Part shown: positions 5,851 through 60,398 of the stretch, piece by piece
Layout of the letters: each line of letters begins with the position of its first letter
How positions within the stretch are numbered: position 1 is the stretch's first letter
Program-made: the position numbers and the translations under genes
Assembly: GCA_016212855.1 (NCBI GenBank)
Contig: JACRDP010000010.1
Coordinates: 42,954-106,953, forward strand
Reading direction: 5' to 3'
DNA: 64,000 nt
From: Elusimicrobiota bacterium
Lineage (GTDB): Bacteria; Elusimicrobiota; Elusimicrobia; UBA1565; UBA9628
The notes under the pieces: generated by a model
Told to the model about the DNA's origin: nothing
The model's input: only the letters and a program-made list of their open reading frames with translations
The model's database searches: none

Positions 5851-6877
5851 TGTAGACGCGTTGCGTGGTTTCGTAGAACTGATCGAGCCCGAAGGACTGC
5901 TCCCAACTGGCGCGCCCGGCGCGGCCGAGACGCTCGGCGAGCTTGGGGTCTTTCAAGAGCGAGTGGATGGCTTCGCGCAGGGCGGCGGAGTCGCCGGGCT
6001 CGACGAGGAGGCCGGTGACGCCGTCCTCGACCATGTCGGGGATGCCGCCGACGCGGGACGCCACGACGGGGCGACCCAGCGCCATCCATTCGAGCGTCGC
6101 GCGCGAGACCGCCTCGGAACCGAGCGAGGGGACGACGCCGATCCGGCAGGAGGCCAGAAACGCCCACTTGTCCGCGACGCGGCCGGGGAAGTCGACGACG
6201 CCCTCGAGGCCCGCGGGCTTGAGCTGCCAGCTCAGGCGCTGAAGCAGCTTGCCCTCGCCCGCGCAGCGGACCTTCAGGCCGGGCACGGCGGACTTCAGCC
6301 GCGCGGCCGCGTCGATGAGGATCTCGTGGCCTTTGACCTTGTCGAAGCGCGCGATCATGCCCACGATGGGCGCCGCGGGCAGGAAGGTCGCGTGCGCGGG
6401 GCCGTCGATGCCCTGCGGCACCCGCGCGACCTTGGCTTCGGGGAAGGCGGACTTGATGGAGACGCCGAGTTCCGTGTTGGCGGCGATGAAGGCGTCCGTG
6501 CGGCCGGCGACCGCTCGGGTCAGGACGTTGGGGCTGGCGGGTCGCGCGTCGCCGCGGGTGCGAACCACCGCGGCGGGGCGTCCCGACGCGAGCGTGACGG
6601 CGAGCGCGTGGGCCGAGCCGGTGTGCGCGTTGATCACGCGCGGCGCGAACTTGGCGCACAGCCGCCTCTGCTCGGGCCAATGGAGCAGGCCGGGCGCGCC
6701 GCCGCTGAAGCCGCGCACGGGGAGCCCCAGCGCGCGCGCCTGGGTCAGCACGGGCGAGTCCGCGCGGCCCCAGAATTCGACGCGGTGCCCGCGCCGCGCC
6801 TGCTCGGCGGCCAAGGTCAGCGCGTAATGGGCGATGCCCGAGTCCCAGGGCTCGTCTTCGATATGAAGGATATTCAT
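5822..6877 (-). CDS. glycosyltransferase family 4
   Basis: Start at MNILHIEDEPW. GT4 motif EAVSRATLEWMALGRPVVASRVGGIPDMVEDGVTGLLV. The R-rich upstream part of the called ORF is rejected. Confidence 0.75.
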   Translation of the reverse strand: MNILHIEDEPWDSGIAHYALTLAAEQARRGHRVEFWGRADSPVLTQARALGLPVRGFSGGAPGLLHWPEQRRLCAKFAPRVINAHTGSAHALAVTLASGRPAAVVRTRGDARPASPNVLTRAVAGRTDAFIAANTELGVSIKSAFPEAKVARVPQGIDGPAHATFLPAAPIVGMIARFDKVKGHEILIDAAARLKSAVPGLKVRCAGEGKLLQRLSWQLKPAGLEGVVDFPGRVADKWAFLASCRIGVVPSLGSEAVSRATLEWMALGRPVVASRVGGIPDMVEDGVTGLLVEPGDSAALREAIHSLLKDPKLAERLGRAGRASWEQSFGLDQFYETTQRVYNEATAHLPL

Positions 6878-28234: not shown

Positions 28235-28254
28235 GTCCTAAACTTCTGCGAGTG

Positions 28255-28327
28255 GGTCCGTAGCTCAACGGATAGAGTACTTGGCTTCGAACCAAGTGAT
28301 CCGGGTTCGATTCCTGGCGGGCCCACC
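28255..28327 (+). tRNA. tRNA-Arg (anticodon UCG)
   Basis: Hand-folded cloverleaf. Acceptor GGGTCCG/CGGGCCC. D-stem GCTC/GAGT. Anticodon stem CTTGG/CCAAG with loop CTTCGAA. T-arm CCGGG-TTCGATT-CCTGG. Encoded CCA. Confidence 0.75.
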
Positions 28328-35224: not shown

Positions 35225-37057
<1,833 letters not shown>

Positions 37058-37069
37058 TCTATTTTTCCT

Positions 37070-38797
37070 TTACTTGGGTCGGGCGCCGTATTCGCGGGGA
37101 GTGATGATCGCGGATTCCTTGACCACGGCGTGAGGCAGGAGCATGAAGCGATCCGCGTCGAGCTTGAGAACCACGTAGTCGAGAGTGATGTCGATGACTT
37201 CGCCGGCGTTGTCGCCGATCGTGACCTTGTCCCCGATGTGGAACACCTTGGACTTGAGCAGGATCGCGCCCTGGATAGCGGCGTTGAGCTGGTCGTTGAT
37301 CATCGTGGAGACGAGGGCCGTCGAGACGACGAGGCCGATGCCCAGGGCCATCCAAGAGACGCCGACGGAGTTGAGGAGGAAGGAGCCGCCGATGAGCCAA
37401 GAGAGAGCGCTCACGCCGAGCTTGACGACGGTCGTGACCGGGCGGCTCCAGCCGTAGCGCGTCTGGAGCTTATCGATGCCGGTCCGGATGGACTTGGAGA
37501 TCGAGTTCGTCAGGATCGCGACGAGTCCGCCCTGGACCCAAGGGAGGACGGCCCCGACCCAGCCGAAGGCCGTCGCGGCGACGGCGGGGGCGAGCAGCGG
37601 GAAGAAGGACAGCGCGACGATCGCGCCGGCCGACCACAGGATGGGCTTCCACAGAGCGGGCGTGGCCGCGTCCTTGATCGCGCGCAGGAGGCCGCGCGGG
37701 AGAGCGGGCTTGCTGAGATGCAGGCGCAGGGCCTTCGTCTGATAGCTGCCGTATAAAATCGTTCCGGCGGCCGCGACCTGGTTGTAGGTGCGCAGGATGT
37801 AGCTGCCGTCTTCGGCCTTGAGGACCATGTAGCGCAAGGTCAGGTCGTGGACGACGCCGGTGGTTTTTCCGATGGTGACCTTATCACCGATGTTGAAGGG
37901 ACGCGACAGAAGAAAGCGCACGCCCTGGAAAAGATTGCCCGCGATGTCCTTGGTCGTCGGCGCGAGGAGGAAGTTGAGCGTCGTGACGCCCGCGCTGGCG
38001 CCGACCGCGGTGAGCACGCCCGCCGCGGGAAGGCCGAGCGTGACGAGGCTGACGCTGACGCCGGCGACCCAGAGAACCGCGCTCGTGGCGAAGCGCGCCA
38101 GAACGACGCCGTCCTTGTCGAGGCCGAGTCGCGGCGCGAGTTTGTCGATGACCCAGCGCGAGACGCGGGTCAGGCCGTAGGCGGCCGCGAGGGCGCCGAG
38201 GCTTTCCGCGTACGGCAAGGCGGTGGTCGCCCATTCGGGAAGCTGCGCCAGGCCGGGGAGGGCGGGCAGAGCCGCGACGGGAGCGAGCATGGCGGCGCCG
38301 CGCAGAAGACGAGAGGTGGACTTCACGGGCGTCGCGGCGGCGGGAACGGCGTCGTCGGTCTCGGGCTTAGAGGCGGCGCCCGACCAGAACTGCTCGCCTT
38401 CGGCGCGAAGCGCGACGGGACTGTCGGACGGCTTCATCTCGCGAGCGGCGGCGGCATGAATGGTCGTCAGAGCCGCGGGCACGGCGGCTTTCGCGGCGGC
38501 GGCCGCAGTCACGGGGATCGCGGCGGCGGGAAGGACGGGAACGGTCGCGGCCTGAGCGACGATCGGGGCGGCGGACGCCGCCGGCGACGTGACCGGCGTG
38601 AGGCCGAGGGCCAAGGAAGGCGTGAGCACCGCGCTATTGAGGGAAGGGGCCGCGTTGAACCCCGAAACGCCGAGAACGGGAACCACGCTGATCCCGGCCG
38701 GGACGCGGGAAACGCCGGCCGCGACGCGGGTCTGGGCGGCAGACGGTGAAGTCAGGACCGCGCACAGCGAAAGGGCGATGATCGGTTGAAATTTCAT
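37070..38797 (-). CDS. mechanosensitive ion channel family protein with two MscS-type beta domains
   Basis: Multiple TM helices. Two copies of the MscS middle-domain motif (NIGDKVTIGKTTGVVHDLTLRYMVLKAEDG and HIGDKVTIGDNAGEVIDITLDYVVLKLDAD). Confidence 0.7.
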   Translation of the reverse strand: MKFQPIIALSLCAVLTSPSAAQTRVAAGVSRVPAGISVVPVLGVSGFNAAPSLNSAVLTPSLALGLTPVTSPAASAAPIVAQAATVPVLPAAAIPVTAAAAAKAAVPAALTTIHAAAAREMKPSDSPVALRAEGEQFWSGAASKPETDDAVPAAATPVKSTSRLLRGAAMLAPVAALPALPGLAQLPEWATTALPYAESLGALAAAYGLTRVSRWVIDKLAPRLGLDKDGVVLARFATSAVLWVAGVSVSLVTLGLPAAGVLTAVGASAGVTTLNFLLAPTTKDIAGNLFQGVRFLLSRPFNIGDKVTIGKTTGVVHDLTLRYMVLKAEDGSYILRTYNQVAAAGTILYGSYQTKALRLHLSKPALPRGLLRAIKDAATPALWKPILWSAGAIVALSFFPLLAPAVAATAFGWVGAVLPWVQGGLVAILTNSISKSIRTGIDKLQTRYGWSRPVTTVVKLGVSALSWLIGGSFLLNSVGVSWMALGIGLVVSTALVSTMINDQLNAAIQGAILLKSKVFHIGDKVTIGDNAGEVIDITLDYVVLKLDADRFMLLPHAVVKESAIITPREYGARPK

Positions 38798-39036: not shown

Positions 39037-40290
39037 ATGAACCATTATCGCCTCCTGCGCCGGAGCCTCGCCAAACGCCTCGCCGGCCAGGGCGTCGTTC
39101 ATCTCGCGGGCGGCAAGCCCGTCGCGCGCAATTTCGACGTGGAGTACGCGTTCCGCCAGAATTCCGATTTCCTGTACGTCACGGGCGTCGAGGAGCCCGG
39201 CTGCCATCTGGTGCTCGACGGCTCGCGCGAGATCCTGCTCGTGCCGCGCGTCGACGCGCACCATCGCGTGTGGGAGGGGAACGTCCCCGGCCCGTCCGAG
39301 GCGAAGAAGCTGTTCGGCGTGGACAAGGTGATGTACGCCGACGAGCTGAAGAAGGCCCTGCGCGGACGCCGGCCCGTCGCGGCGTCCAAGCTGCGCGACG
39401 CTCTCGACGAACTGCGCGCGGTCAAGACCGAAGGCGAGCTCGCGCTGATGCGCCGCGCCAACGCGGTCAGCGGCGAGGCGCACGCTGCGGTCATGAGGGC
39501 GACGCGCCCGGGAATGAAGGAGTACGAGCTTCAGGCGATCTTCGACTCGGCGTGCGTCAAGCGCGGGCTCAAGCATCTGGCGTATCCCTCGATCGTCGCG
39601 GCCGGCGTCAACGGCGCGGTCCTGCACTACCGCAAGAACGACGCCGCCCTGCGCTCGGGCGACCTCCTGCTCATCGACGCCGGCGCGGAGCTCGGCGGCT
39701 ACGCCGCCGACATCACGCGCACCTTCCCGATCAACGGGAAGTTCACGCGCCGTCAGCGCGACGTGTACTCGGTCGTGCTCGAGGCGCAGAAAAAGTGCAT
39801 CGCCAGGGCGCGGCCCGGCATCATCTCCGCGGATCTGCACGTGTACTCCATGCGCGTGATCGCCGAGGGGCTCAAAGATCTGGGCTTTCTCAAGGGCGAC
39901 GTGGACGGCCTCGTCGAGGGCGGCGCGGTGCGCCTTTTCTATCCGCACGGACTGACGCACATGCTCGGCCTCGACGTGCACGACGTGATGGGGGGCAAGC
40001 GCCGCGTGCTTCCGAACCCGACGAAGGTGCCCGTCCGTTTCGTGGCCAAGCTCGAGCCCGGCTTCGTGATCACCATGGAGCCCGGCGTGTACTTCATCGA
40101 GGCCCTGCTCAAGGACCCGGTTCTGCGCCGCAAGCACAAGGACAGCGTCGATTTCGCCAAGGCCGACTCGTTCCTCGACTTCGGCGGCATCCGCATCGAG
40201 GACGACATCGTCGTCCGCGACGGCCCCGCCGAGAACCTCACCCGCGTTCCCAAGGAGATCGACGCCGTCGAGGCCGCCTGTGCGCGCTGA
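39037..40290 (+). CDS. Xaa-Pro aminopeptidase (M24B family)
   Basis: YRQNSDFLYVTG N-domain. HGLTHMLGLDVHD...EPGVY...IRIEDD metal ligands. TATAAT 6 nt upstream of the ATG at about 39037. Alternative starts at 39022 / 38953. Confidence 0.8.
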   Translation: MNHYRLLRRSLAKRLAGQGVVHLAGGKPVARNFDVEYAFRQNSDFLYVTGVEEPGCHLVLDGSREILLVPRVDAHHRVWEGNVPGPSEAKKLFGVDKVMYADELKKALRGRRPVAASKLRDALDELRAVKTEGELALMRRANAVSGEAHAAVMRATRPGMKEYELQAIFDSACVKRGLKHLAYPSIVAAGVNGAVLHYRKNDAALRSGDLLLIDAGAELGGYAADITRTFPINGKFTRRQRDVYSVVLEAQKKCIARARPGIISADLHVYSMRVIAEGLKDLGFLKGDVDGLVEGGAVRLFYPHGLTHMLGLDVHDVMGGKRRVLPNPTKVPVRFVAKLEPGFVITMEPGVYFIEALLKDPVLRRKHKDSVDFAKADSFLDFGGIRIEDDIVVRDGPAENLTRVPKEIDAVEAACAR

Positions 40291-41368
40291 CGCGCTTCTC
40301 GCGCTGCTGCTGCTCGCGGCGCCGACTGTTCTGCGCGCACAGGATCTGGGCTTCGACGTGCATTTCGGCTCCCGCCACGGCGCCGAATTCACCGCCCGCT
40401 CGAGCTCCTGGTGGAGCTCGAAAGTTCTCTTCGACAGCGGCTTCAGCGATCCGGTTCCGGGCGAATGGGACGTGCTGCTGATCCAAGGCGTGCTGCCCGA
40501 TCCGAACGTCCGCTTTCAGGCCGCGCGCTCCGGCGGCTCATGGGTCGACCTGGACGTGACGCGCGGCCCGGACGGCCGCTTCTGGGCGAAGGGGAAATTC
40601 CCGCGCAAGGCCGGGCCGGTGCGCCTGCGCGCGCTCGACGCGGGCGTCGCCGGCGAGAGCGCGGTGTCGATCTACGGCGCGGAGGCGTTCGCGGACGCGC
40701 CCGAGACCCCCGCGCCGTCGCTGCCGCCGTCGCGCGGCCCCGTCGATCCGGGCGCGAAGCCCCCGCTCGTGCACGGCCGGGCCGAGTGGCGCGCCGTCCC
40801 GCCGGTGAACCCGTACTCGCCCGATCCGATGCCGTGGCGCGTCACCTTGCATCACACGGACGGGCGCTACACGACGAACCTCGCGGAGAGTCTCGAAGAG
40901 ACTCGCTTCATCCAGGATTTCCATCAGCACGGCCGGGGCTGGAGCGACATCGGCTATCACTTTCTCGTCGATCCGCTGGGCAACGTCCTCGAGGGACGCC
41001 CGCTCGAAACGCTCGGCGCGCACACGCTCAGCAACAACGAGGGCAACGTCGGCATCGTCCTGCTCGGCACGTACCACGCGCCGAAGAACGACCAGCCGAC
41101 CCCCGCCCAGCTCGCGGCCGTCGCGTCGATCGGGCGCTTCCTCGTCAAGCGCTTCGGCATCGATCCCGCCTCGCTCAAGGGTCACCGCGACTACAAGCAG
41201 ACCGACTGCCCCGGCGACCTGGCCTATCCCAAGCTCCCTGAACTTCGCGCGGCGTTCGGGGCGACTGCGCCCGTGCCCTCCGCGCGCAAGCCGCGGCGAG
41301 TGCGTGTTTCACCCGTCGCGACGGCCCCGGATTGGGACGGCGGGCAATCCAGGCCCTTAGGCCTATAG
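40280..41368 (+). CDS. N-acetylmuramoyl-L-alanine amidase (Amidase_2/PGRP domain), secreted
   Basis: Signal peptide. HHTDG...IGYHFLV...GHRD...C zinc-amidase motifs. Confidence 0.75.
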   Translation: MRADALLALLLLAAPTVLRAQDLGFDVHFGSRHGAEFTARSSSWWSSKVLFDSGFSDPVPGEWDVLLIQGVLPDPNVRFQAARSGGSWVDLDVTRGPDGRFWAKGKFPRKAGPVRLRALDAGVAGESAVSIYGAEAFADAPETPAPSLPPSRGPVDPGAKPPLVHGRAEWRAVPPVNPYSPDPMPWRVTLHHTDGRYTTNLAESLEETRFIQDFHQHGRGWSDIGYHFLVDPLGNVLEGRPLETLGAHTLSNNEGNVGIVLLGTYHAPKNDQPTPAQLAAVASIGRFLVKRFGIDPASLKGHRDYKQTDCPGDLAYPKLPELRAAFGATAPVPSARKPRRVRVSPVATAPDWDGGQSRPLGL

Positions 41369-41534
41369 ACGTATGGTGCCGGAGGCACTGGCAACTGCTC
41401 TGCGCCGCCGTTAAACTCAACAGAGCATCTGTAGCTCGGGGAATTGGCCCCGGGGCATCCACGACCCGACCGAAATCGGGTGAGACCAGAGGTCTGCGGC
41501 GCGTTTACGCCGAGGCTTCTGGCTTTTTATTTTT

Positions 41535-42278
41535 ATGGGAACGAACATTATTAAATCTATGAGAATCAGCGGAACACGCGTCGGTGGATCAATGTGCATC
41601 GTCTTAATCGTAGCTTCTCTTGGCATGGCTGTCGCGCGCGCCGGAGACGTGAGCCGCGATGAGGCGTTCGCACAGGCAAAAAATGACGACGAACAAGCTC
41701 TTGTCGATCGCCCGTTGTACGTCACTCCCGCCCCGAAAAAATTCAGGCCCCGGGGCAAAGGCGAGCTCATCGTGATGAAGTTGACGCTGGAAAAGACGAC
41801 AATTCGTCGCGGAACTCCTATCCGCTGCCGATTAGAGATCGCTAACGTCGGGTCGGTCCCGTATGTGTTCATCGAGCACTCGCAAAGTTTTTTCAAAACC
41901 GGCCGTTTGCCATCGGATGCTCTCAATATGAGCGTCAAAGGTCCGCGAGGGAAAGAAAGCTTCGCTCGCTCGAAGTTCCCCGGGAATTCGGATATCGCTG
42001 CAGAAATTCATCTTCCGGCTGGACTTACTGAGGCCGAGAAAGCGGCCATGGTCGAAAGCATGAAACGCGATAAACGCTCGACGACGACGCTTTTCCAACG
42101 CCTTGCCCCGGGAGAAACACTGCATACCCGCGGCGATACGGCTCCAAATGGTTTTCGCACATTCGACATCGGCTCTTGGCTCAATTCGGATGGGGATTAT
42201 GAGCTGTACATGGTCCTCGATGCGTTTTCCAAATCCGAAAGAAAATCCAATCGCGTACACCTGAAGGTGGTTCCATGA
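41535..42278 (+). CDS. hypothetical secreted protein
   Basis: Signal peptide (MCIVLIVASLGMAVARA). No recognised domain. Confidence 0.5.
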   Translation: MGTNIIKSMRISGTRVGGSMCIVLIVASLGMAVARAGDVSRDEAFAQAKNDDEQALVDRPLYVTPAPKKFRPRGKGELIVMKLTLEKTTIRRGTPIRCRLEIANVGSVPYVFIEHSQSFFKTGRLPSDALNMSVKGPRGKESFARSKFPGNSDIAAEIHLPAGLTEAEKAAMVESMKRDKRSTTTLFQRLAPGETLHTRGDTAPNGFRTFDIGSWLNSDGDYELYMVLDAFSKSERKSNRVHLKVVP

Positions 42279-43861
42279 AGCGGCTGCTTCTTCTGGCCCT
42301 TATGGCATGGGTGGTTCCGGCCATCGCTTATGCGGGGCCGTGTCCAAGCTCGGATGGGTCGCCTTGCTTGCCTGATGATGGAACACAGAAAGATTTGCTG
42401 AGAAGGATCCGAGAAGTGCAGGCCCTGAACAATGAGATTCGCTCTGCCGCCATCGTTTGGCAAAATTCTCGCGCCGGAACGGATAGAGCGGGGGAGCTCT
42501 CCAAGTATGAGGCGTACGCGCAAGCGAAAAACACATTCGATGACAAATCGGTAAAACTCATCGATCAAATTCAGAAAGCCTACAATGTCGCGCCTACGCA
42601 CACATCCGGATTAACTCGAAAACCCTCGGGGACAAACCGCACTATGGCTTGGATGGATGGCCTCCCAGCGCAATGGAAACCTCGGTTCAGCAACAATGAT
42701 GACGATTATCGTGCGATTCAGACCAAGAGCGGGACTCATTACGCATCCGTGAATACGGCGGCTTATGCCGGCGCAACGCTTCCCAATGGCGATGTCGTGA
42801 TCGGCGCGTCATTGCTGTCAGAGGCATTGAAGGATCAGAATCCCGGCATCATCGCTCAAGCGATATATCATGAGGGGCGCCATTTCGCCGATTTGGTGAC
42901 TACCGGCTGGCGGTCGATTGAGCAGGGCGAAGTTGCTGCCTATACAGCGGTAGCGGCGCATGATGATACCTTTAAGCTGTCAGAGGGCTGGCTCCAACTC
43001 AATGCAGCCAATCTCTTAGCCAATCAGGCTGCGCTGGATGCCGGCTCGGAACGCGCGTATGCCATCACCGCCAAAGATGAGAAATTGATCAAGGGCATCA
43101 TCGACCAAGAAAAAGCTAGGCAGGGAGATTTCGCTAAATATTATGCGATTCTCAAGGCGGAGGTGACGAAGACCACCGCTGAGCGCGAGCATGATGAACT
43201 CCTGAAAAAAACAATCGCCTCAATAGCTCTCCGATCATGCGCCAATCCCGGAAGCGTGACACAAGATGAGCTGAACGCTCTCGATAAGCCTTACCGGAAA
43301 GATTTCTACCGAGGAGAGTTCCCCAAGGGACTGGAGGGGGCAGACGGCACCGGGTATTGTACCGAACCGTATTTTTATTTGGGCGACATGGCGGGGGCGA
43401 ACCCTGACGCGTTGCGCCTCAAATCGTTGTCAACGCCCAGGCAGCCTGCAATCTCTCCACCTCTGCCTGAGCAGCATGTTCCGGCCGTGCCGGTGGATCT
43501 CGCTGCGCTGACGATCTCGAACATGCGCCGCTTGGCGATCCTCGCATGCGATTATCCTGGAAGGCTAACTTACGCAGATACAACCGGGGCGATCAAGACG
43601 GCGTATGTTCCGCTTCCAGCCGCGCAGAGTGCAGGATCGGATCTAACCGGATGTGCGCGTTTTGTCTATGATGCTCTCGTTTTCTTTGTTCCTCAGGGCT
43701 ACCGGGGGGCGCTGACGCCTGACTGGCTTCGCGAACGAGCCCTGGCCTACAGTCCGCCAACTCCTCCGCGAGGCGAACCTGGCGGGGGACGCGGCAGCCC
43801 TCCTAGAAAGGATCCTTGCTACTGGGACCCTGGGTGCAACTGCCGTGTCTGCGAGGATTGA
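42275..43861 (+). CDS. hypothetical secreted protein with HExxH-like motif (HEGRH) and Cys-rich C-terminus
   Basis: Signal peptide MKRLLLLALMAWVVPAIAYA. AIYHEGRHFADL. C-terminal DPCYWDPGCNCRVCED. ATGA overlap with the upstream gene. Confidence 0.5.
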   Translation: MKRLLLLALMAWVVPAIAYAGPCPSSDGSPCLPDDGTQKDLLRRIREVQALNNEIRSAAIVWQNSRAGTDRAGELSKYEAYAQAKNTFDDKSVKLIDQIQKAYNVAPTHTSGLTRKPSGTNRTMAWMDGLPAQWKPRFSNNDDDYRAIQTKSGTHYASVNTAAYAGATLPNGDVVIGASLLSEALKDQNPGIIAQAIYHEGRHFADLVTTGWRSIEQGEVAAYTAVAAHDDTFKLSEGWLQLNAANLLANQAALDAGSERAYAITAKDEKLIKGIIDQEKARQGDFAKYYAILKAEVTKTTAEREHDELLKKTIASIALRSCANPGSVTQDELNALDKPYRKDFYRGEFPKGLEGADGTGYCTEPYFYLGDMAGANPDALRLKSLSTPRQPAISPPLPEQHVPAVPVDLAALTISNMRRLAILACDYPGRLTYADTTGAIKTAYVPLPAAQSAGSDLTGCARFVYDALVFFVPQGYRGALTPDWLRERALAYSPPTPPRGEPGGGRGSPPRKDPCYWDPGCNCRVCED

Positions 43862-43889
43862 AAAGCAGTTGACGTCTTTGCAGAGCAGA

Positions 43890-44666
43890 TCAGAGAAGGA
43901 GTAGCGCGACCAAGCCGAGCGCGACGCGGTAAAGCGCGTAGGGCTTCAACCCGCCTTTGGGCAGGAAGCGCAGGAACGCTCCGACGGCGGCAAATCCTAC
44001 CGCGCCCGACACGGCGAGGCCGAGAACGAAGGGCCCCGTGACGTCGGCCGGTCCCAGATGGCGCAGCTTGAGCAGCGCCGCGCCCGCGACGATCGGCGTG
44101 GCCATCAAGAAAGACAGTTCCGCGGCCTGAGACCGTTCCAGGCCGAGCAGCAGCGCCGCGCTCATCGTGGCACCCGAGCGGGACACGCCCGGCATCAGCG
44201 CCAGGGCCTGGGCGCACCCGACGAGAAGCACGGTCCGCACACCGGCCGTGCGCCAGGCGCCGGCGGCGCCCTCGCCGCGGCGATCGGCCCACCACATGAC
44301 GCCGCTGAAGGCGATCAGGCAGGCGCCGATGCGGCGCGGGTCGCGGAAAGCGTGCTCCGCGGTTTTCTCGAGGGCCAGCCCGGCGACGACCGCGGGCACG
44401 GTCGCCAGAACCAGCAGGCCGAGCGTGCGCGCCTCCTCTCCGCGCGGATCGCGCAGCGCGCCCGTGAACAGCCTCAGCCAGGTCTCGCGGTAGTACACGA
44501 GCACCGCGGCCAAAGTCCCCAGATGAAGCGCCACGTCGAACGTCAGGCCCGGGTCCGGGAAGGAGAAGAAGAGAGGCGCCAGGGCCAGGTGCGCCGAGCT
44601 CGACACGGGCAGGAATTCCGTGAGGCCTTGGACGGCCCCGAGCAGCGCGGCCTGGGCGTAGGTCAT
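43890..44666 (-). CDS. uppP: undecaprenyl-diphosphate phosphatase
   Basis: Start MTYAQAALLGAVQGLTEFLPVSSSAHL, canonical BacA/UppP N-terminus. 8 TM segments. Confidence 0.85.
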   Translation of the reverse strand: MTYAQAALLGAVQGLTEFLPVSSSAHLALAPLFFSFPDPGLTFDVALHLGTLAAVLVYYRETWLRLFTGALRDPRGEEARTLGLLVLATVPAVVAGLALEKTAEHAFRDPRRIGACLIAFSGVMWWADRRGEGAAGAWRTAGVRTVLLVGCAQALALMPGVSRSGATMSAALLLGLERSQAAELSFLMATPIVAGAALLKLRHLGPADVTGPFVLGLAVSGAVGFAAVGAFLRFLPKGGLKPYALYRVALGLVALLLL

Positions 44667-46300
44667 TCCGCGGCTACGCGGGGAACCAACGCCATGTCGC
44701 GGCGCACGGGCTTGCCCACCGCGCCGATCCACGGGAGGTTGCGCGCGCCGGCCTGCAGAAGAAACTTGCGCTGCTCGAGGTCGGCTTTGCGCACCGAGCT
44801 GGTCGAATCGAGCTCGTCGATGTGCTTTCCCGAGTAGTCATCGTGAATGATGCGCAGCTGGTAGCCGTTCGCCGGTCCCGCGGGCATGGTCAGGCTGAAA
44901 TTCCCGCCGGTGCCGGTTTCCGTCGAGGCGACCTCGTTGTCCTCCGCGTCGACGAACACCAGCTTGACGCCGAAGACGCCCCTGGTCGTCAACAGATCGT
45001 ACACGGTCCCTTCGAACGTCCACTGCGGCCCCTTGGGCTTGACGGGCGCCGGCGGCGCCGCGGGCTTGGGCTTGGGTTTCAACGTCGGCGCGGGAGGCTT
45101 CGGGCGCGGCGCGACGTTGAAGGTCGCCGTCGGACGCGAAGGATCGGGCACGGGCGTCGAGGGGACAGGGGCCGATGGTGTCACCGGCGCCGGAGCCGGC
45201 GCGACGATCGGCGCGGGCGGCGCCGGGGGCGGGGCGACGGGAGCCGGAGCCGCGACCGGCGGCGTATCGCTCCCGGGCTTGGGCGGCTCGACGGTCCGGC
45301 CCACCGACGGAGCGGGCAGGTTCGTCGGCGCCGGCCCGTCGCTCGGCGCCGCCGGCATGGGGGAGACGGGAGCCGCGTTCGGGTCTCGCGGCGTGATCGG
45401 GTCGTCGATCGAGGGAGTCACCGTGGCCTCCCCGGCGGCGCGCTTGCCGAAGGGAGACGCGCCCGTGGGCCGCGCGGCGCCTTGCGGCTCGGTGCGCAGC
45501 ATCATGAAGATCGCGCCCATGCTGAGCAGGCCGAGAGCGCCGCCGGCGAGAGCCGCGAGCTGGACGGCCGACTGCCGCCCCTTTTTCGGCGGCTCGGTCG
45601 GAGCGGGCTTGCTCGCGGGCGCGCGTTCGGGCTTCGGCGCCGGCCGTTCCGCCGGCGGGCGCCGCGCCTCCGCCTCGACGACGATTTCCTTGGTCGAGGT
45701 CGGCAGGAATAGAGCGGGGGGAGGCGCTTCGTCGGCCGCTTCCTCGACTTCGGGCGCGGGCTCGGGCGCAGCCGCCGCGGAAGGGAGAGACACGCCTTTC
45801 GGTTGCTCCTCCTCCTCCTCCTCCGGTACGGGAGGAGGCGCCGGATCGAGCTCGGTCTTCTTGGGCGGGAGCTTCTTCAGCGGCTCGACCGGAGCTTTCT
45901 CCGCCTCGGACTTGGGCTTGGCTTCGGGAAGTTTCGCGGCCGGGGGCGGAGGGGGAGGAGCGAAGAGGCTCTCGCCCGGCTTGGGGCCCAGGTTTCGGGC
46001 GACGGGCAAGGCGAAGGGATTCTCGTCCCCCGGCGGCGACGCGAACGCGCCGGAGCCGCCTTTGGTCGGCTTCACGGGAGGCGGCGCCTCTCCGCCGCGC
46101 GCCGGCGGCAGGGAAAACCCGGCCTGAGCGGGCGGAGGCGCGGCCGGCTTGAGCGGCGGTTTTGAAGCCGGCGGCTCGGCTTTCTTCCCGGCCTCGGGGG
46201 CCTTCCCTTTTTTATTGGCGACGAAATCCCAACCGCAGGCCTGGCAGAGCCGGGCCTCGTCGGGAGCTGTGGCGCCGCAGCTCGGGCAACGGGAGATCAT
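44663..46300 (-). CDS. zinc-ribbon membrane protein with Pro-rich regions and C-terminal carboxypeptidase-regulatory-like beta-sandwich
   Basis: CPSCG...CQACG N-terminal zinc ribbon. Pro/Ala-rich linker. One TM (LAALAGGALGLLSMGAIFMML). A second Pro-rich tract. C-terminal GTVYDLLTTRGVFGVKLVFVD...GNFSL. Confidence 0.55.
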   Translation of the reverse strand: MISRCPSCGATAPDEARLCQACGWDFVANKKGKAPEAGKKAEPPASKPPLKPAAPPPAQAGFSLPPARGGEAPPPVKPTKGGSGAFASPPGDENPFALPVARNLGPKPGESLFAPPPPPPAAKLPEAKPKSEAEKAPVEPLKKLPPKKTELDPAPPPVPEEEEEEQPKGVSLPSAAAAPEPAPEVEEAADEAPPPALFLPTSTKEIVVEAEARRPPAERPAPKPERAPASKPAPTEPPKKGRQSAVQLAALAGGALGLLSMGAIFMMLRTEPQGAARPTGASPFGKRAAGEATVTPSIDDPITPRDPNAAPVSPMPAAPSDGPAPTNLPAPSVGRTVEPPKPGSDTPPVAAPAPVAPPPAPPAPIVAPAPAPVTPSAPVPSTPVPDPSRPTATFNVAPRPKPPAPTLKPKPKPAAPPAPVKPKGPQWTFEGTVYDLLTTRGVFGVKLVFVDAEDNEVASTETGTGGNFSLTMPAGPANGYQLRIIHDDYSGKHIDELDSTSSVRKADLEQRKFLLQAGARNLPWIGAVGKPVRRDMALVPRVAAE

Positions 46301-46342: not shown

Positions 46343-49300
46343 TTACGCGACGGAAGAGTCGTCGTCGGAGCCGTCGCGCTTGCGGCGGCGGCGAGTCATG
46401 CCGACAAGGTACGGCAGTTCGGAGTGATAGACCAGGTAGCCGATCGAAACGGCGGCGGCGCCGCGCAAAGTCAAGGACAGAAGATCGCGCCAGTCCTTGC
46501 CCTCGGCGGGACGATCCTCGGGCAGTTCATATTTATGGCGCGCGGGCGGCATATAGGTGTAGCTGAAATCCTCTTCCTCGGGCTTGACGCCGGGCGCGAC
46601 CGGGCGCGCCGGGTTGACCGCTCCGCCCGCGACGCGCGCGACCGGCGGGACTTTGTCGTCGGCGGACGGGGCCGTCAAGACCGGAGTGCGCGCGGCCAGC
46701 CGAGGCAGGCCCGGGCTGTCGCCCGCGCCCAGCCCCTTCATCGGGACGGGGGACCAGCCCGTGCCCTGGTCCTTGCGATCGCGCGAGCCGTCGAAGCGCG
46801 ACGCTAAGGAGGGAACGGGGTCATGCCCGCCGCCGACCGTCGTTTGATTGGGAATCGCGCGCGCGCCGCGGTTGACCGGGATCACGGGGCCGCCGCCGGC
46901 GAGGCCTTCGGGCACGGCCGGGCTCACGACCGGGCCGCTCTTGGGAGCGCCGCCTCCGCCGCCGGGAGCGCCGTCACCGCCGGCTCCGCCGCCGCCGCCG
47001 TCGGCTCCGCCGCCGCCTCCACCGCCACCGCCTCCTCCACCGCCGCCGGCGTCGCCGAAGCCGCGGAAGTTGGGAGCCTTGGGCCCCTTGCCGCCGCCGC
47101 CTTCTCCGCCGCCGCCTCCGCCGCCGGCGACGGAGCCGCCGTTGCCGCCCGAGCCGGGGCCGCCGTTGCCGACCGGGCCGGGGGGCGGAGGCTCGGGCTG
47201 GGGCTCGAGTTTGAGTTCGGGCTCGGGCTGGGGCTCGATCTTCTGTTCAGGAATCGGATCGGGCTTCGTCTCCGCAACCGTGTCGTCCGCTGGATCGGGT
47301 GTCCGTTCGGCGGGCACTTCGATATCCGTGTTGAAGGGCACTGCCCGGCGCCGAGGGATGACGACAGGAGGCGGGGGAATCACTCTCGCGGCCAAGCTCA
47401 TGTAGCCGCCCTCGCCGATGCGCCGGAGGGCCTTGCGCCAGATGCTTTCCTTGAGCTTCGGCTCCACTTCCACCTTCTCCTTGACCTTCTCGCGGACGCG
47501 TTCCCCGGCCTTCAGGTCCAACTCGCCTTTGCCCTTGACCTTCACGGGCTCCTCGATGAGCTTGACCTTCCGGACCTCTTCGCCCTTCATGAATTCGAAT
47601 TCGAGCTGTTCGCCGGGCTTGGCGCCCTCGACCTTCGCCTCCACGATCTCCGTTTCGCCGGGCTTGGCTTCGACCACTTTCGCTTCGATGGGCTTGGCTT
47701 CCACCGGCTTCTCGCCCGGCTTGGCTTCCACCGGTTTGCCTTCGACCGGCTTCGCTTCGACCGGCTTCGCTTCGACCGGCTTGGCATCCGCCACCTTGGC
47801 TTCGACGGGTTTCGCCTCGACCGGCTTTCCGTCGAGCGGCTTGGCTTCCACCGGCTTGCCTTCAAGCGGGTTCACTTCGAGCGGCTTCGCTTCCAGCGGC
47901 TTGGCCTCGAGGGGTTTGGTCGCGGAAGCCAACTCGCTGCCCGCCGTTTCGGCGGCCGGGCCGTTGGACTCGACTTTCGTGTTGGCCTTGACGTCGCCGG
48001 TCTTGAGCTCCGGGCGCTCGATCCCGCCGCCCTTGGCGTCTTTGATCCATTCGTTCTTCAGTTTCTCGAGCCCTTCTCCCGCGCGCTTCCACCAGGGGCC
48101 TTTCGCTCCGGCGGGGGCTTCGACTCCCGCTACCGTGCCCTCCCCTTTGGCCACGCCGCCTCCGCCGCCCGCGCCTTCGACGACGGCCGGCGCGCCTTTG
48201 CCGACCGCCGGCGTGACGGGGCCCTGAGCGCCCGCCCCGTTGACGTTGGCCTGCCCCGGATTCTTCGCCCCGAAATCCAACTCCAACTGCACCGGCGGCT
48301 TGGCCGCGACGGCCGCGCCGCCGCCGGGCGTCGCTTTGGCGACGGGCTCGGCCTTCGGGGCGCGGAAGCGGTCGATGAGGCTCTTGCCGAACTTGTAGCC
48401 GGGCATTTCCTTGCCCATCGACTTCGCCCCGAAGAAGAGCATGCTGAGGTCCACGACCGCGTTGCCCAGCGCGTCGGTCCCCTCGGGCGTGCCCGCGTGC
48501 TGGATCGCGTCGTTGACGTGGGCGCCGGTGGCGAGAACGAACGGAGCCACGACGCTCGTGATGGCCAGCCCGCGGATAACGCTCACGCCCTTTCCGGCGA
48601 GGGTCACCGTGCGGCCCAGGCCGGTCGAGCCGGCCTTGGTCAGCGCCGCGCCCTTGGCCCCGATATTGGCCGCGAACTTGCCGAGCGCCGAGAACGCGTA
48701 CGGCATGGCCCAAGTGAGCGGGTTGGTCAGCATCTGGCCGACGGCCTCGCCGGCCGAGGCGAAGAAGCCGGCGACGGCGTGCCCGTTGCGGGAGAGCTGC
48801 TTGCCGTAGGTGCCCGCGCCGAACTCGGCGAGCGTGAAGTACGCCTCCAAGTCGGTCGGCGGCATCTTCATCGCCTGCTCGTAGTACAGCGGCGTGAGCT
48901 CGGCGGTGACGCCCATCGCCTCGAGGTGCTCGGGGCGCAGTTCCAGGGCGCGCTTGTCGAGGAGCTTGCGCGCGCCCGGGGTCAGAAGCTTCAGGAACTT
49001 GCGCGCCCACTCCTCGAACTTCTCCGGTTCCTTCTCGCCGTCGGGCTTGGTGCCCGCGATCGAGTAGCACCAGGCGGGGTTGCGCGACTTCGTGGCGATG
49101 TTGTTGAGCAGGGCCTGGTCGCCGCTGACGTTGCTTTCGACGACGTTGACGATGCCGGTATAGACGAAATTGCTGACGTAGTTCGAGGCGTCGAGCACCT
49201 GCTTCAGGACGGGGACGTCGACGATCTTCTGCGCCAGCCAGAGGGCCGGCGCCGAGCCGGGGATGGACTTCGAGGTGGTCGGCTTCTCCCAGCTGTTCTG

Positions 49301-51664
49301 CTTCGCCCAGCTTTCCGGCGCGGTCAGGTCGAAGGACTCGCGGTGCATCGGGTAATGCGTGACCCGGTCCTTGCTGGCGAACCAGTTTCCCGGATTCCAG
49401 CCGCCGCCGCCGTAGGCGTCGACGTCCTTGGTGAAGGTCTCCTCGCGGACGTTGCGCTGCCCGCCGCCGAGGTACTCGAAGGCCACCGTCGCGGCCTTCA
49501 GCTGGGACTTGGGATCGTGCGCGTTCTCCATGGCCCAGTCTTTGTCGTAGCGCACCGGATGCTGGACCAGCAAAGCGACGCCGCCGGAGCGTCCCGGCTC
49601 CGCGGTGCGGTCGCCGAAGAACGCGGTCAGGACCGTGCGCTCGCCGTTGGCCTTCTGCAGCACCATCGTGATGGCCTTGCGCGCGCCGGGGGCGATGGTC
49701 ATGCGGATCGCGGGCTCGCCGTTGTACTCGGCCAAGCCGTCCATGACCGCGTTGTAGTTCAGGAAGTCGGCGAAGGCCGCGGCTTTGCGGCCGTCGGCGT
49801 CGGCCTCGCCGATCGCGGCCAGGACTTCCTTGGCCAGCGCCAGCGCCGCCGCCTTGCGCTTGTCGGCGTTGGTCGCCGGGGGAAGCCCCGTGAGGTCCAC
49901 GTCCCAGCTCACGACCTGGCCGTCCTTGAGGAGCTGCTTGACGTGAGCGGACGCCTTCTTCAGAGTGGTGCCGTCGTGATTGACCCGGAACTCCATCTCG
50001 AGGGTGCCGTCGGCGTTGACGTGGTCGACCTGCATCCGGTAAGGCGAATTGTTCGCGTCGAGGAACTTGACCTCGCGGTTGCCCTTGGTCAAAGTGGCTT
50101 CGAAGCGGGGGCCGTCGCCGCCCAGCTGACGGATGATGGCGTCGCCGGTTTTATCGTTGCCCCGCTCGTAGCGCTCGACCTTGCCCTTCAGGTCGTAGGT
50201 CGTCTGCTCGGAGATGTTGGTCGCGGGATCGTAGGTCTGGCGCGTGAGGCGATGACCCGCGCCGTCGAAATTCTCGATGACCTGCGCGAGGACCACCCGC
50301 TGGCCGTCGAAGTTCTGATGGATGATCTCCTTGGCGCCGTTGGCCTTGGTGGTGATGCGGATGATGGCCGACATGTCCGCGGTCGAGGCTTCATACACGG
50401 ACGACTTGTCGGCCTTTTCGAAACGCAGGCCGACGAAGTCCGTGCCCTCGTGCTTGAAGGCCACCACCTCGCCGCCGCGCGAGCCCGCTCCCTGCGGGTA
50501 GGTCTCCCACGGCGAGAAGCGCGTGCCGATGGGCGCCTTGCGCACGTTTTCGCGGAGGTAGGCGCGGTAGGTCCACAGCACCGCGGCGAACTCGGCGAGC
50601 TCGGGGTTGAACTTGCCGATCTTGTCGAGGCGCTCGGTGATGTCGTCGTCGGACGTGGGGAAGGGTGTGGTGATGCCGACCGAGCGGGCCGAGTCCGCCT
50701 CGACCTTGATCAGATGGGCGACGAGCGCGTCGATGGACTTGAAGCTGTCCGGGTCGCCGCGCATCGCCGAGACGGCGCCTCGCCCGCTTTCCCAGAGCTG
50801 GAGGAGGTTCGCGCCGCGCTCGGCGGCGAAGTCCGGCTCCCCGCCCGGCAGCCGCTTGCGGAATTCGTCCAGCGCGCGTCCGGCCGCGAAGGTCAGGCCC
50901 GCGTAGTCGACCTGCACGGGGATCGCGGCGGTGACGACGGCGGTGTTGTTCGCCCGTACGGGCGCGGGAGTGGGCCGGTCGAGGTCGCGGGCCTTGGCGG
51001 CGTTGGTGCCGGGGGCGCCCTTGGGCGTGTACGACCAGGTCGCGGCGACGGACTTGCGCACCTCACGGAAATCCACGGCGACGCCGCCGCGGCCGGCCGG
51101 AACGCCGTAGCGCTTGGTCAGGTTGTCGAAGATCGTCTGGGCCTGGGAAGGATCGGCCGCGGCTTTATCGAGGTCTCCCAAGAGCGCGTCGACCGCGAAA
51201 AGCGGATCCGCCGCCGCCGTGGTCGCGGGCGCGTTTCCGGCCGCGACGACCGCCTTGCGCACCGCCGGGGTGAAGGCCGCGCCGCCGCCGGTCAGGCGCA
51301 GGCTTCGCGTGATGACGCTCGAGGTCCGGACCAGACGCTCATCGAGAATCTTGCGGTCCGAAGCCGGCATCTGGAGCGAGGCCAAACGGGACTTGAGCTC
51401 CTGGCGGCGGGCGTCGAGCGCGGCGAACGTCGAGGGCTGTTCGCCCTTGAGATGCTTGAGCAGCGCCGTCTCGAGGCCGGCCAGCTCGGCGGCCATGCGC
51501 AGGCCTTCGGGGCTCGTCGGCGCGCCGCCGATGGCCGAGGCCGTCTGGGGGACGGCGGGGACCGCGACGGCGGCGGTGCCTTCGCCGGCGCGGGCCGACA
51601 GGGAGGCGGCGAGCGCGAACGCGCACGCGGCGAGGAGGGGTACTCGGCGGCTCTGGGTCCTCAT
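46343..51664 (-). CDS. giant (1773 aa) secreted, C-terminally anchored surface protein with tandem KPxEA repeats and poly-Gly tracts
   Basis: Signal peptide MRTQSRRVPLLAACAFALAASLSARA. About 20 tandem (K/E)P(V/L)EA pentapeptides. G-rich low complexity. C-terminal TM plus RRRRKR tail. Confidence 0.65.
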   Translation of the reverse strand: MRTQSRRVPLLAACAFALAASLSARAGEGTAAVAVPAVPQTASAIGGAPTSPEGLRMAAELAGLETALLKHLKGEQPSTFAALDARRQELKSRLASLQMPASDRKILDERLVRTSSVITRSLRLTGGGAAFTPAVRKAVVAAGNAPATTAAADPLFAVDALLGDLDKAAADPSQAQTIFDNLTKRYGVPAGRGGVAVDFREVRKSVAATWSYTPKGAPGTNAAKARDLDRPTPAPVRANNTAVVTAAIPVQVDYAGLTFAAGRALDEFRKRLPGGEPDFAAERGANLLQLWESGRGAVSAMRGDPDSFKSIDALVAHLIKVEADSARSVGITTPFPTSDDDITERLDKIGKFNPELAEFAAVLWTYRAYLRENVRKAPIGTRFSPWETYPQGAGSRGGEVVAFKHEGTDFVGLRFEKADKSSVYEASTADMSAIIRITTKANGAKEIIHQNFDGQRVVLAQVIENFDGAGHRLTRQTYDPATNISEQTTYDLKGKVERYERGNDKTGDAIIRQLGGDGPRFEATLTKGNREVKFLDANNSPYRMQVDHVNADGTLEMEFRVNHDGTTLKKASAHVKQLLKDGQVVSWDVDLTGLPPATNADKRKAAALALAKEVLAAIGEADADGRKAAAFADFLNYNAVMDGLAEYNGEPAIRMTIAPGARKAITMVLQKANGERTVLTAFFGDRTAEPGRSGGVALLVQHPVRYDKDWAMENAHDPKSQLKAATVAFEYLGGGQRNVREETFTKDVDAYGGGGWNPGNWFASKDRVTHYPMHRESFDLTAPESWAKQNSWEKPTTSKSIPGSAPALWLAQKIVDVPVLKQVLDASNYVSNFVYTGIVNVVESNVSGDQALLNNIATKSRNPAWCYSIAGTKPDGEKEPEKFEEWARKFLKLLTPGARKLLDKRALELRPEHLEAMGVTAELTPLYYEQAMKMPPTDLEAYFTLAEFGAGTYGKQLSRNGHAVAGFFASAGEAVGQMLTNPLTWAMPYAFSALGKFAANIGAKGAALTKAGSTGLGRTVTLAGKGVSVIRGLAITSVVAPFVLATGAHVNDAIQHAGTPEGTDALGNAVVDLSMLFFGAKSMGKEMPGYKFGKSLIDRFRAPKAEPVAKATPGGGAAVAAKPPVQLELDFGAKNPGQANVNGAGAQGPVTPAVGKGAPAVVEGAGGGGGVAKGEGTVAGVEAPAGAKGPWWKRAGEGLEKLKNEWIKDAKGGGIERPELKTGDVKANTKVESNGPAAETAGSELASATKPLEAKPLEAKPLEVNPLEGKPVEAKPLDGKPVEAKPVEAKVADAKPVEAKPVEAKPVEGKPVEAKPGEKPVEAKPIEAKVVEAKPGETEIVEAKVEGAKPGEQLEFEFMKGEEVRKVKLIEEPVKVKGKGELDLKAGERVREKVKEKVEVEPKLKESIWRKALRRIGEGGYMSLAARVIPPPPVVIPRRRAVPFNTDIEVPAERTPDPADDTVAETKPDPIPEQKIEPQPEPELKLEPQPEPPPPGPVGNGGPGSGGNGGSVAGGGGGGGEGGGGKGPKAPNFRGFGDAGGGGGGGGGGGGGGADGGGGGAGGDGAPGGGGGAPKSGPVVSPAVPEGLAGGGPVIPVNRGARAIPNQTTVGGGHDPVPSLASRFDGSRDRKDQGTGWSPVPMKGLGAGDSPGLPRLAARTPVLTAPSADDKVPPVARVAGGAVNPARPVAPGVKPEEEDFSYTYMPPARHKYELPEDRPAEGKDWRDLLSLTLRGAAAVSIGYLVYHSELPYLVGMTRRRRKRDGSDDDSSVA
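47628..47925. repeat. tandem 15-bp repeats (about 20 copies, degenerate) inside the giant CDS
   Basis: Units like GGCTTCGACCGGCTT / GGCTTCCACCGGCTT encode the KPxEA repeats on the minus strand. Confidence 0.6.
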
Positions 51665-60323: not shown

Positions 60324-60398
60324 TCCGGGCTAGCTCAACGGTGGAGCAGGCCGCTGTTAACGGCAAGGTTCTAGGTTCGAGTCCTAGGCCCGGAGCCA
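60324..60398 (+). tRNA. tRNA-Asn (anticodon GUU)
   Basis: Hand-folded. Acceptor TCCGGGC/GCCCGGA. D-arm GCTC-AACGGTG-GAGC. Anticodon loop CTGTTAA. T-arm CTAGG-TTCGAGT-CCTAG. Encoded CCA. Confidence 0.85.

Follow-up and report, generated by a model that had tools for sequence, protein, structure and literature searches.

A predicted 2'-dG-II riboswitch heads a relocating gene pair encoding a putative exported zinc hydrolase in Elusimicrobiota

What is a two-gene block of unusually low GC content doing between two conserved genes of an Elusimicrobiota genome, and what controls it? The block lies in a 64,000-nucleotide stretch of contig JACRDP010000010.1 (assembly GCA_016212855.1), which we analysed as a whole and refer to as the window. 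It comprises two open reading frames (ORFs), gene A (41535-42278, +; 247 amino acids; alternative starts at 41559 and 41592) and gene B (42275-43861, +; 528 amino acids), flanked on the left by an N-acetylmuramoyl-L-alanine amidase gene (40280-41368, +; Pfam Amidase_2, 1.6e-16) and on the right by uppP/BacA (43890-44732, -; Pfam BacA, 3.4e-74), which is convergent with gene B and separated from its stop codon by 28 bp. A first-pass annotation, made from the letters alone, had described a lower-GC pair of overlapping genes for secreted proteins at the 3' end of uppP, and this layout held up: the ORFs overlap by 4 bp (ATGA), both products show the features of a signal peptide, a Pfam scan of A is empty as expected of a protein with no recognisable domain, and B contains AIYHEGRHFADL and ends in DPCYWDPGCNCRVCED. 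We compared the pair with a set of fetched loci (L001-L025), among them the corresponding locus of a close relative (L009). The block is probably a self-contained accessory cassette, consisting of a promoter, a 2'-dG-II riboswitch, A and B, through which a zinc-hydrolase pair would be deployed on a deoxyguanosine cue.

The controlling element, which the first-pass annotation had overlooked, is a riboswitch with its terminator at 41424-41534, directly upstream of A. It was spotted during a comparison of inverted repeats, in which the regions upstream of A turned out to be near-identical between loci whose proteins share just 25-50% identity. The aptamer (41424-41494, +), a P1-P2-P3 three-way junction, is recognised by the Rfam model RF03165 for the 2'-dG-II purine riboswitch with a score of 77.8 bits, where the gathering threshold is 60, and an E-value of 1e-20; the match covers all 71 positions of the model. 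RF03165 matches of 61.7-84.3 bits also lie directly upstream of A at L001, L010, L011, L013/14, L015, L020, L022, L023/24 and L025, which gives a riboswitch-A-B architecture at 10 distinct loci including the window; every one of these that carries an organism name is from Elusimicrobiota. At L021 and L019 just the 3' part of the element is present, the rest being cut off by the contig end. The distance from the end of the aptamer to the start codon of A is 29-77 nucleotides in the nine loci measured. In an alignment of six loci, P2 was paired throughout (100%) and P3 to 97%, and 4 pairs showed compensatory changes; the covariation score from these six sequences was higher than in 498 of 500 shuffles and in every slid control.

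In the crystal structure of the class member env1, U22, C51 and C78 contact the guanine and G21, C47, U49 and C50 contact the deoxyribose; the features that define the class are U22, C51, C78 (numbered C74 in xpt), a G21-C79 pair next to the junction and two extra nucleotides in J3/1 (PMC6847200, PMC12282948). We mapped these positions through the alignment to the Rfam consensus and found that the window has all of the env1 ligand contacts (G21, U22, C47, U49, C50, C51, A52, C78 and C79). It reads G-UAG in J1/2, GCAUCCAC in J2/3 and GAGAC-C from J3/1 into P1, and thus contains the complete pocket of the class. Class membership and the conserved contact nucleotides point to 2'-deoxyguanosine, or a close guanine nucleoside, as the predicted ligand.

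An expression platform follows, in the form of an intrinsic terminator hairpin and U-tract (41482-41534, +) whose 5' arm is the 3' strand of P1, CCAGAGG (41487-41493). In the ligand-free minimum-energy fold calculated with ViennaRNA, P2 and P3 were retained and P1 was swapped for the terminator hairpin; the 3' part of the leader on its own folds at -25.6 kcal/mol. Each of the six leaders that we folded had the same arrangement, with the 3' strand of P1 as the 5' arm of the terminator and a U-run after it. This terminator was found by ViennaRNA folding and had been missed by a scan for sigma-70 and terminator consensus sequences. Reuse of the P1 3' strand makes P1 and the terminator mutually exclusive, and a ligand-stabilised P1 should therefore block termination, which gives the switch an ON direction. 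Control by transcription termination has been described for the 2'-dG-II class (2025 paper, PMC12342879).

Upstream of the aptamer lies a putative -10 box, TAAACT (41412-41417, +), 6 nucleotides before the aptamer and recognised by its sequence pattern; a generic sigma-70 scan did not call it. A GTTAnnnT-type box about 7-12 nucleotides upstream of the aptamer recurs in most of nine leaders, the -10-like boxes reading CGTTAAACT, CGTTATCCT, CGTTATTCT, CGTTATACT (two loci) and GGTTATGAT (two loci). Since such a box precedes the aptamer at most loci, promoter, riboswitch, A and B appear to move as one package. Some points weigh against the control that we propose. Ligand binding and switch direction are both inferred computationally, and guanosine is also bound by some 2'-dG-II members (PMC6847200), which bears on ligand specificity. 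The riboswitch is absent from L009, from the second tandem copy in L011 and from L005, which has A only, and is thus not obligatory for A-B. We nevertheless regard the RNA as very probably a functional switch of the 2'-dG-II type that controls A-B.

The low GC content that drew attention to the block was confirmed by computation. In 400-nucleotide sliding windows, GC was 0.53-0.56 across 41400-43400 and 0.66-0.75 in the flanks. The A+B pair has a GC content of 0.552, against a window mean of 0.669 (standard deviation 0.025, 2.3-kb windows), and is the GC minimum across the 64 kb, the second-lowest stretch being at 0.60. GC at third codon positions (GC3) is 0.58 in A and B and 0.85-0.90 in the five neighbouring genes (those for the MscS-like channel, the M24 protein, the amidase, uppP and the next gene), showing that the drop sits at synonymous sites. 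The amidase gene (GC3 0.87) and uppP (GC3 0.85) are native in composition and mark the left and right insertion edges.

Comparison with L009 indicated how the block came to lie there. The order typA-MscS-M24-amidase-uppP is common to L009 and the window, with protein identities of 93% for typA, 86% for M24, 75% for uppP, 66% for the amidase and 54% for MscS. In L009, the amidase gene and the convergent uppP adjoin each other directly, without an intervening block, which bears out the synteny check proposed in the first-pass annotation. L009 has its own A-B pair, without a riboswitch, between MscS and M24 and in the opposite orientation; in the window these two genes are neighbours. The B proteins of the two pairs are 28% identical and the A proteins show no similarity detectable by BLAST. 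The closest relatives of the window pair (48-52% identity) are found in other genomes, flanked by mfd and a surA-like gene, and further A-B copies adjoin ArsC and glycosyltransferases, NapAB, or TonB/ExbBD. The empty site in L009 and the varied locations elsewhere argue that the block was inserted. Judged by these comparisons, it is a fast-evolving cassette that is mobile within Elusimicrobiota and has been inserted here between the amidase gene and uppP. We also observed that the MscS-like channel, whose N-terminal region is long and rich in Ala and Pro, is much more diverged than typA between the two genomes (54% versus 93%; 35231-38797 versus L009:5289-8825).

Horizontal acquisition, as the first-pass annotation had suggested, is in keeping with the foreign composition and the empty amidase/uppP site, but no mobility machinery or integration signature accompanies them. 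Neither an integrase, a transposase or a tRNA gene nor a conserved terminal repeat turned up in the ORF list and repeat scans to explain the movement, which counts against a mobile cassette. So does the possibility that the persistently low GC3 could stem from something other than transfer: in every locus sampled the pair has a GC3 of about 0.56-0.74, compared with about 0.78-0.95 in its neighbours. Within each genome the pair thus lies about 0.1-0.3 below its neighbours, despite divergence of the proteins to about 25% identity, and neither a single transfer nor amino-acid composition accounts for this. Being present in every genome sampled, low GC3 is a property of the cassette lineage and no proof of one recent transfer.

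A reading without any horizontal island would hold that the locus is old, vertically inherited, weakly expressed and fast-evolving, that it was moved by local rearrangement, and that relaxed codon selection or mutation bias accounts for its low GC3. The presence of the pair in nearly every related genome sampled, GC3 that is depressed whatever the GC of the host (a poor fit to a single recent transfer), and the lack of mobility genes and of matches in phage and plasmid collections would all suit this idea. It does not readily explain the reciprocal empty and occupied sites of two close relatives, whose copies are non-orthologous (28% identity) and oppositely oriented, nor the location of the closest relatives of the window pair (48-52% identity) at the mfd-surA locus elsewhere, nor a promoter and riboswitch that travel with the pair. 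We consider it improbable and retain the inserted cassette.

We also looked for traces of a vehicle. A scan of viral contigs, tblastn against phages and plasmids, and PHROGs gave no A-B matches, and a phage- or plasmid-borne origin was dropped as unsupported. The 9-bp inverted match that the first-pass annotation had seen bracketing the block does exist, although its left arm, CTGCTCTGC, lies at 41395-41403 and not at about 41409; the right arm, GCAGAGCAG, lies at 43880-43888, within the 28 bp that separate B from uppP. The match extends to 20 nucleotides at 75% complementarity. Its chance probability is about 0.07 for flanks of 200 and 120 bp, or 0.007 if the comparison is limited post hoc to the two spacers, and 23 inverted pairs of at least 9 nucleotides occur within the same 2.9 kb. 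No comparable inverted repeat was present at seven other A-B loci. Given this probability, the lack of counterparts and a left arm within the presumed promoter spacer, the repeat is probably due to chance; we judged both arms incidental and rejected them as conserved terminal repeats.

Several loci hold more than A and B. A third exported family of about 200-260 residues, with 43-74% mutual identity and no Pfam, PADLOC or PHROGs match, is encoded at L010:2135-2914, L011:1926-2633 and 5649-6356, and L025:3886-4491. It lies immediately upstream of riboswitch-A-B in three genomes, has a likewise lowered GC3 of 0.73-0.80 and is absent from the window. At L011:1926-7852 the cassette is duplicated in tandem, as a 235-residue gene, A and B; the second copy has no riboswitch, and its B is truncated at 176 residues right before the HExxH motif. 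At L019:761-2361 and L021:796-2375, a pair of overlapping ORFs takes the place of an intact B; these may be frameshift pseudogenes or assembly errors.

A and B form a unit. A gene of the A family precedes every B gene in the Elusimicrobiota loci that we fetched, and A is the obligate upstream partner of B in every such locus examined; the most distant A proteins were recognised through matches in hidden Markov model (HMM) searches and through hhalign (95.4%, E = 1.9e-8). At the junction of the two genes (42264-42278, +), the last codons of A contain the Shine-Dalgarno sequence AAGGTGG and the stop and start codons overlap as ATGA. A 4-bp overlap ([A/G]TGA, mostly CCATGA) with an embedded GAGGTG-like Shine-Dalgarno sequence is found at 10 of the 13 other loci listed as well as in the window, which argues that A and B are translationally coupled. 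The pairing is not strictly symmetrical: L005 has A without B, and at L013:958-2658 and L014:2504-4204 the gene after a riboswitch (84.3 bits) and A encodes a protein with only the C-terminal module (C-module) of B, lacking the HExxH module, which suggests that the partnership of A may be with the C-module and not with the catalytic domain.

Both products are predicted to be exported. By heuristic criteria, all 13 A-family proteins show signal-peptide features, as do 71 of the 85 representatives of the B family; in A and B of the window these are a basic n-region followed by a hydrophobic h-region, and a small-x-small site. Little can be said about A itself. AlphaFold2 (AF2) predicted mainly beta strands, and its weak Pfam matches are to Ig-like domains only. 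The AF2 model has a predicted local distance difference test (pLDDT) score of 38, which makes it unusable and any role for A a guess; this too counts against the scheme. With that in mind, A is tentatively an inhibitor or chaperone of B, or its substrate-binding subunit. We also observed a peptide shared by the two proteins, at residues 35-59 of A (…EAFAQAKNDDEQALVD) and 71-98 of B (…EAYAQAKNTFDDKSVKLID), with 54% identity over 28 residues (blastp E about 0.003-0.006) and, at the DNA level, a 25-nucleotide direct repeat of 84% identity (41659-41683 and 42507-42531).

The first-pass annotation had treated the content of the block as orphan, which its distribution contradicts. Genome and metagenome scans seeded with the exact peptide RSCANPGSV yielded 6 and 2 loci, respectively, and a word-indexed search found 4 relatives of A and 8 of B. 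An exhaustive profile search then placed B in a family of 550 clusters (50% identity) at E <= 1e-3, of which 157 were reached at E <= 1e-30, while A is present upstream in every Elusimicrobiota locus examined. The family representatives carry no source names, and taxonomic statements here cover the named metagenome-assembled genomes (MAGs). No Pfam domain was found in the B-family members tested, including ten with alternative N-termini, and scans of A and B against Pfam, NCBIfam, PADLOC and PHROGs gave nothing significant; in PADLOC, there was no match even at E <= 1 for A, three B homologs and the 235-residue family. The B family is modular, with some members matching the N-terminal part only and others the C-terminal part, joined to different N-termini.

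What B does is suggested by its most conserved part. The AF2 model (pLDDT 79) comprises a signal peptide, a helical hairpin (residues 35-103), a beta-sheet (113-176), a helix bearing the HExxH motif (191-210), a further helix (215-227), a very long helix (266-323) and a helical C-terminal region. The motif, HEGRH, is encoded at 42869-42883 (+) and provides a putative zinc site and catalytic base (H199, E200 and H203); the predicted helix that carries it follows the beta-sheet. HExxH did not vary among 8 full-length homologs. Across a set of 33 diverse catalytic modules, H199, E200, H203 and G172 were invariant and E219 was at least 90% conserved, giving the pattern HExxH-x15-E-x-x-A-Y. E219 (codon at 42929-42931, +), within E-x-x-A-Y on the predicted helix 215-227, is a candidate third zinc ligand. 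Sub-threshold matches concentrated on zincins, namely Tox-MPTase4, Tox-MPTase2, MPTase-PolyVal, eCIS_core and DUF6782, and the periplasmic M48 protease BepA was profile-aligned over the strand and the HExxH helix (E = 1.6, not significant).

Several results argue against this assignment. B had no significant match to a peptidase family in Pfam, NCBIfam or PDB sequence searches; PDB searches with single proteins and with catalytic and C-module profiles returned noise only, apart from BepA at E = 1.6. Foldseek with the full-length B model gave a best E of 3 in the PDB and 0.05 in BFVD. The candidate third ligand is not at a fixed place: some subfamilies carry Q as residue 219, with the Glu displaced by two residues. 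The peptidase-and-partner reading in the first-pass annotation stands in part: HExxH is invariant across the family, making a metallohydrolase with a cognate partner reasonable, but structure searches did not confirm a zincin fold. The motif, the predicted topology and the sub-threshold HMM matches together suggest that B is probably a zinc hydrolase of the zincin kind, gluzincin-like in character.

B might instead not be a peptidase at all, its HExxH having another zinc-dependent or a structural role in scavenging DNA or nucleosides or in DNA uptake; for example, B could process nucleic acids or nucleotides, or anchor them to the cell surface through its C-module, with A as a binding subunit. 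An operon under a sensor of a DNA breakdown product would make sense in these terms, other reported targets of the riboswitch class (endonuclease I and ComEC; PMC8872408) act on DNA, and B has no significant peptidase-family match. Yet HExxH with an invariant Glu, a downstream Glu and a strand followed by a helix is the signature of a zincin peptidase, and Pfam and NCBIfam revealed no nuclease or phosphoesterase motif or match. We regard a non-peptidase B as improbable and continue with the zinc hydrolase.

The C-terminal module of B (43172-43858, +) consists of two homologous helical repeats and a terminal Cys-rich loop. The repeats reflect an internal duplication (hhalign 94.5%, E = 7.4e-8), and conserved Cys pairs occur at 322/357, 425/460 and 515/526. 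The even number of Cys residues and the signal peptides of both families fit extracytoplasmic, disulfide-bonded proteins. No relatives of the module were found in Pfam or the PDB; as a duplicated, disulfide-stabilised unit, it probably binds a target or surface. We observed that the C-module is fused to several unrelated, unannotated N-terminal regions (P0043, P0045, P0046, P0050, P0051 and others) and that it also occurs outside Elusimicrobiota without A, at the Acidobacteria locus L012:3326-4670.

Modular shuffling of this sort, together with rapid divergence, copy-number variation and apparent pseudogenes, keeps alive the main rival to our proposal, in which the cassette is an antagonism module: B would be a secreted metallopeptidase toxin, A an exported immunity protein or inhibitor, and deoxyguanosine from lysed kin a danger signal. 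The pair diverges far beyond its flanks (B 28% and A undetectable, against 93% for typA and 86% for M24), there are several copies per genome (L007 and L008 lie in one MAG, and L011 holds the tandem duplication), B is apparently a frameshifted pseudogene in L019 and L021 and is truncated in L011, location varies and GC3 is atypical. The C-module is recombined with alternative N-terminal modules, and the best of the weak Pfam matches are to Tox-MPTase4 and Tox-MPTase2. Those matches, however, are sub-threshold and concern 2 of 33 members only, and the frameshifts may be assembly errors. The usual marks of polymorphic toxin-immunity systems are missing from the pair: no toxin domain, trafficking domain or nearby secretion-system gene was recognisable, and the partner is encoded upstream, has about 240-300 residues and is exported, unlike typical immunity genes. 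A toxin-immunity conflict thus seems to us unlikely.

The events that we propose for the riboswitch-controlled zinc-hydrolase cassette are the following. Transcription would begin a short way before 41424. In the absence of ligand, the P1 3' strand (CCAGAGG) would pair into the terminator, and transcription would halt before gene A. With 2'-deoxyguanosine bound at the three-way junction, P1 would form in place of the terminator and the bicistronic mRNA would be completed. A and B would then be made in a coupled fashion, through ATGA and the Shine-Dalgarno sequence, and both would be exported by the Sec pathway, after which H199, H203 and probably E219 would bind zinc, with E200 acting as the general base. 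Deoxyguanosine may report DNA breakdown, from lysed cells or extracellular DNA, upon which the extracytoplasmic hydrolase pair would be deployed. This would fit the reported 2'-dG-II targets endonuclease I, ComEC and phospholipase D, but DNA breakdown as the physiological cue, leading to scavenging or antagonism, is a speculative part of the scheme.

Elsewhere in the window, beyond uppP, we noted a 545-residue Pro/Ala-rich protein (44663-46300, -) with an N-terminal zinc ribbon and a weakly Ig/CarboxypepD_reg-like C-terminus. The 3' end of its ORF overlaps the start of the uppP ORF by 70 bp, which places the start codon of uppP probably further downstream. Next to it, a 1,773-residue ORF (46343-51664, -) probably encodes a giant surface protein, in which K-P-[VLI]-E-A repeats form long runs, accompanied by a poly-Gly tract and by a membrane anchor at the C-terminus; a nearly full-length ORF antisense to it is an artefact of GC content. 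Transfer RNA genes (Rfam RF00005) lie at 28254-28325 and 60324-60395, and neither adjoins the cassette.

If the proposal is right, a riboswitch class among the rarest to have been validated gains a host phylum, complete expression platforms and a recurrent target operon, which makes its role testable. The link to deoxyguanosine would tie two unannotated protein families to DNA turnover or cell lysis. The low GC3 of the pair in every genome sampled also illustrates that low GC need not imply a single recent transfer. It is conceivable, if doubtful at present, that 2'-dG-II is largely an Elusimicrobiota invention, with mobile, hyper-variable A-B as its principal regulon and deoxyguanosine as a cue of extracellular DNA or lysis for hydrolase export. 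On that view, export would serve the scavenging of dead biomass or an attack on neighbours, and the proteins would represent families not described before, among them a new clade of zincins and a binding module rich in disulfides.

Locally, B resembles the M48/M56 gluzincins and minigluzincins (BepA, PDB 6AIT). It shares with them an edge strand, a G-x-x-[IV]-x-[IV] strand, an L-A-x-x-[LI]-x-H-E-x-x-H helix and the subsequent Glu helix (E-x-x-A-[YD]), and BepA is likewise periplasmic. B differs from BepA in that the similarity reaches only E = 1.6, the Glu lies just 15 residues past the motif, TPR and membrane domains are absent, and a long helical hairpin and the unique duplicated Cys-pair module are added. 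Like Tox-MPTase2 and Tox-MPTase4 (PF15638, PF15640), B has an HExxH module and is fast-evolving, secreted, modular and co-encoded with a partner. By contrast, 2 of 33 members match those families (E = 0.002-0.006), the catalytic module of B is N-terminal rather than C-terminal, B has no trafficking domain, and A is upstream and exported.

The pairing of A with B recalls the serralysin-Inh system (AprA-AprI), in which an exported zinc protease is co-encoded with a periplasmic, beta-rich inhibitor; A likewise could protect the producer. There is no sequence similarity between the two systems, A is larger, upstream and translationally coupled, and inhibition by A is a candidate role. For the switch, a precedent in logic is the pbuE (ydhL) adenine riboswitch of Bacillus subtilis, a purine-family ON switch in which P1 competes with a terminator that reuses the P1 3' strand. 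The window riboswitch follows the same ON logic; pbuE differs in its adenine pocket and in its target, a purine efflux pump.

The RNA resembles the 2'-dG-II class itself (RF03165; env1, PDB 6P2H; Weinberg et al. 2017, Matyjasik and Batey 2019), with which it shares the junction, the ligand contacts, the G-C pair next to the junction, the lengthened J3/1 and control by termination. Compared with env1, position 24 is G in most of the copies here (A in env1) and position 75 in J3/1 is A (U in env1). By the count of McCown et al. 2017 (PMC5473149), the class had just 12 known members, all metagenomic, with sequence insufficient for assignment to a bacterial division; a later secondary source places it in Bacteroidetes. 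Endonuclease I, ComEC and phospholipase D are among the reported targets with an assigned function (PMC8872408, citing Weinberg 2017). Full-text literature searches combining riboswitch with Elusimicrobia or Elusimicrobiota found nothing relevant, and within the literature searched the assignment to a host phylum is new, as is the A-B regulon, although earlier unannotated ORFs or the Rfam full alignment might include them. Whereas the published members came from unassigned metagenomic reads, the copies described here have Elusimicrobiota MAGs as hosts and precede a previously undescribed operon of exported proteins, A and B.

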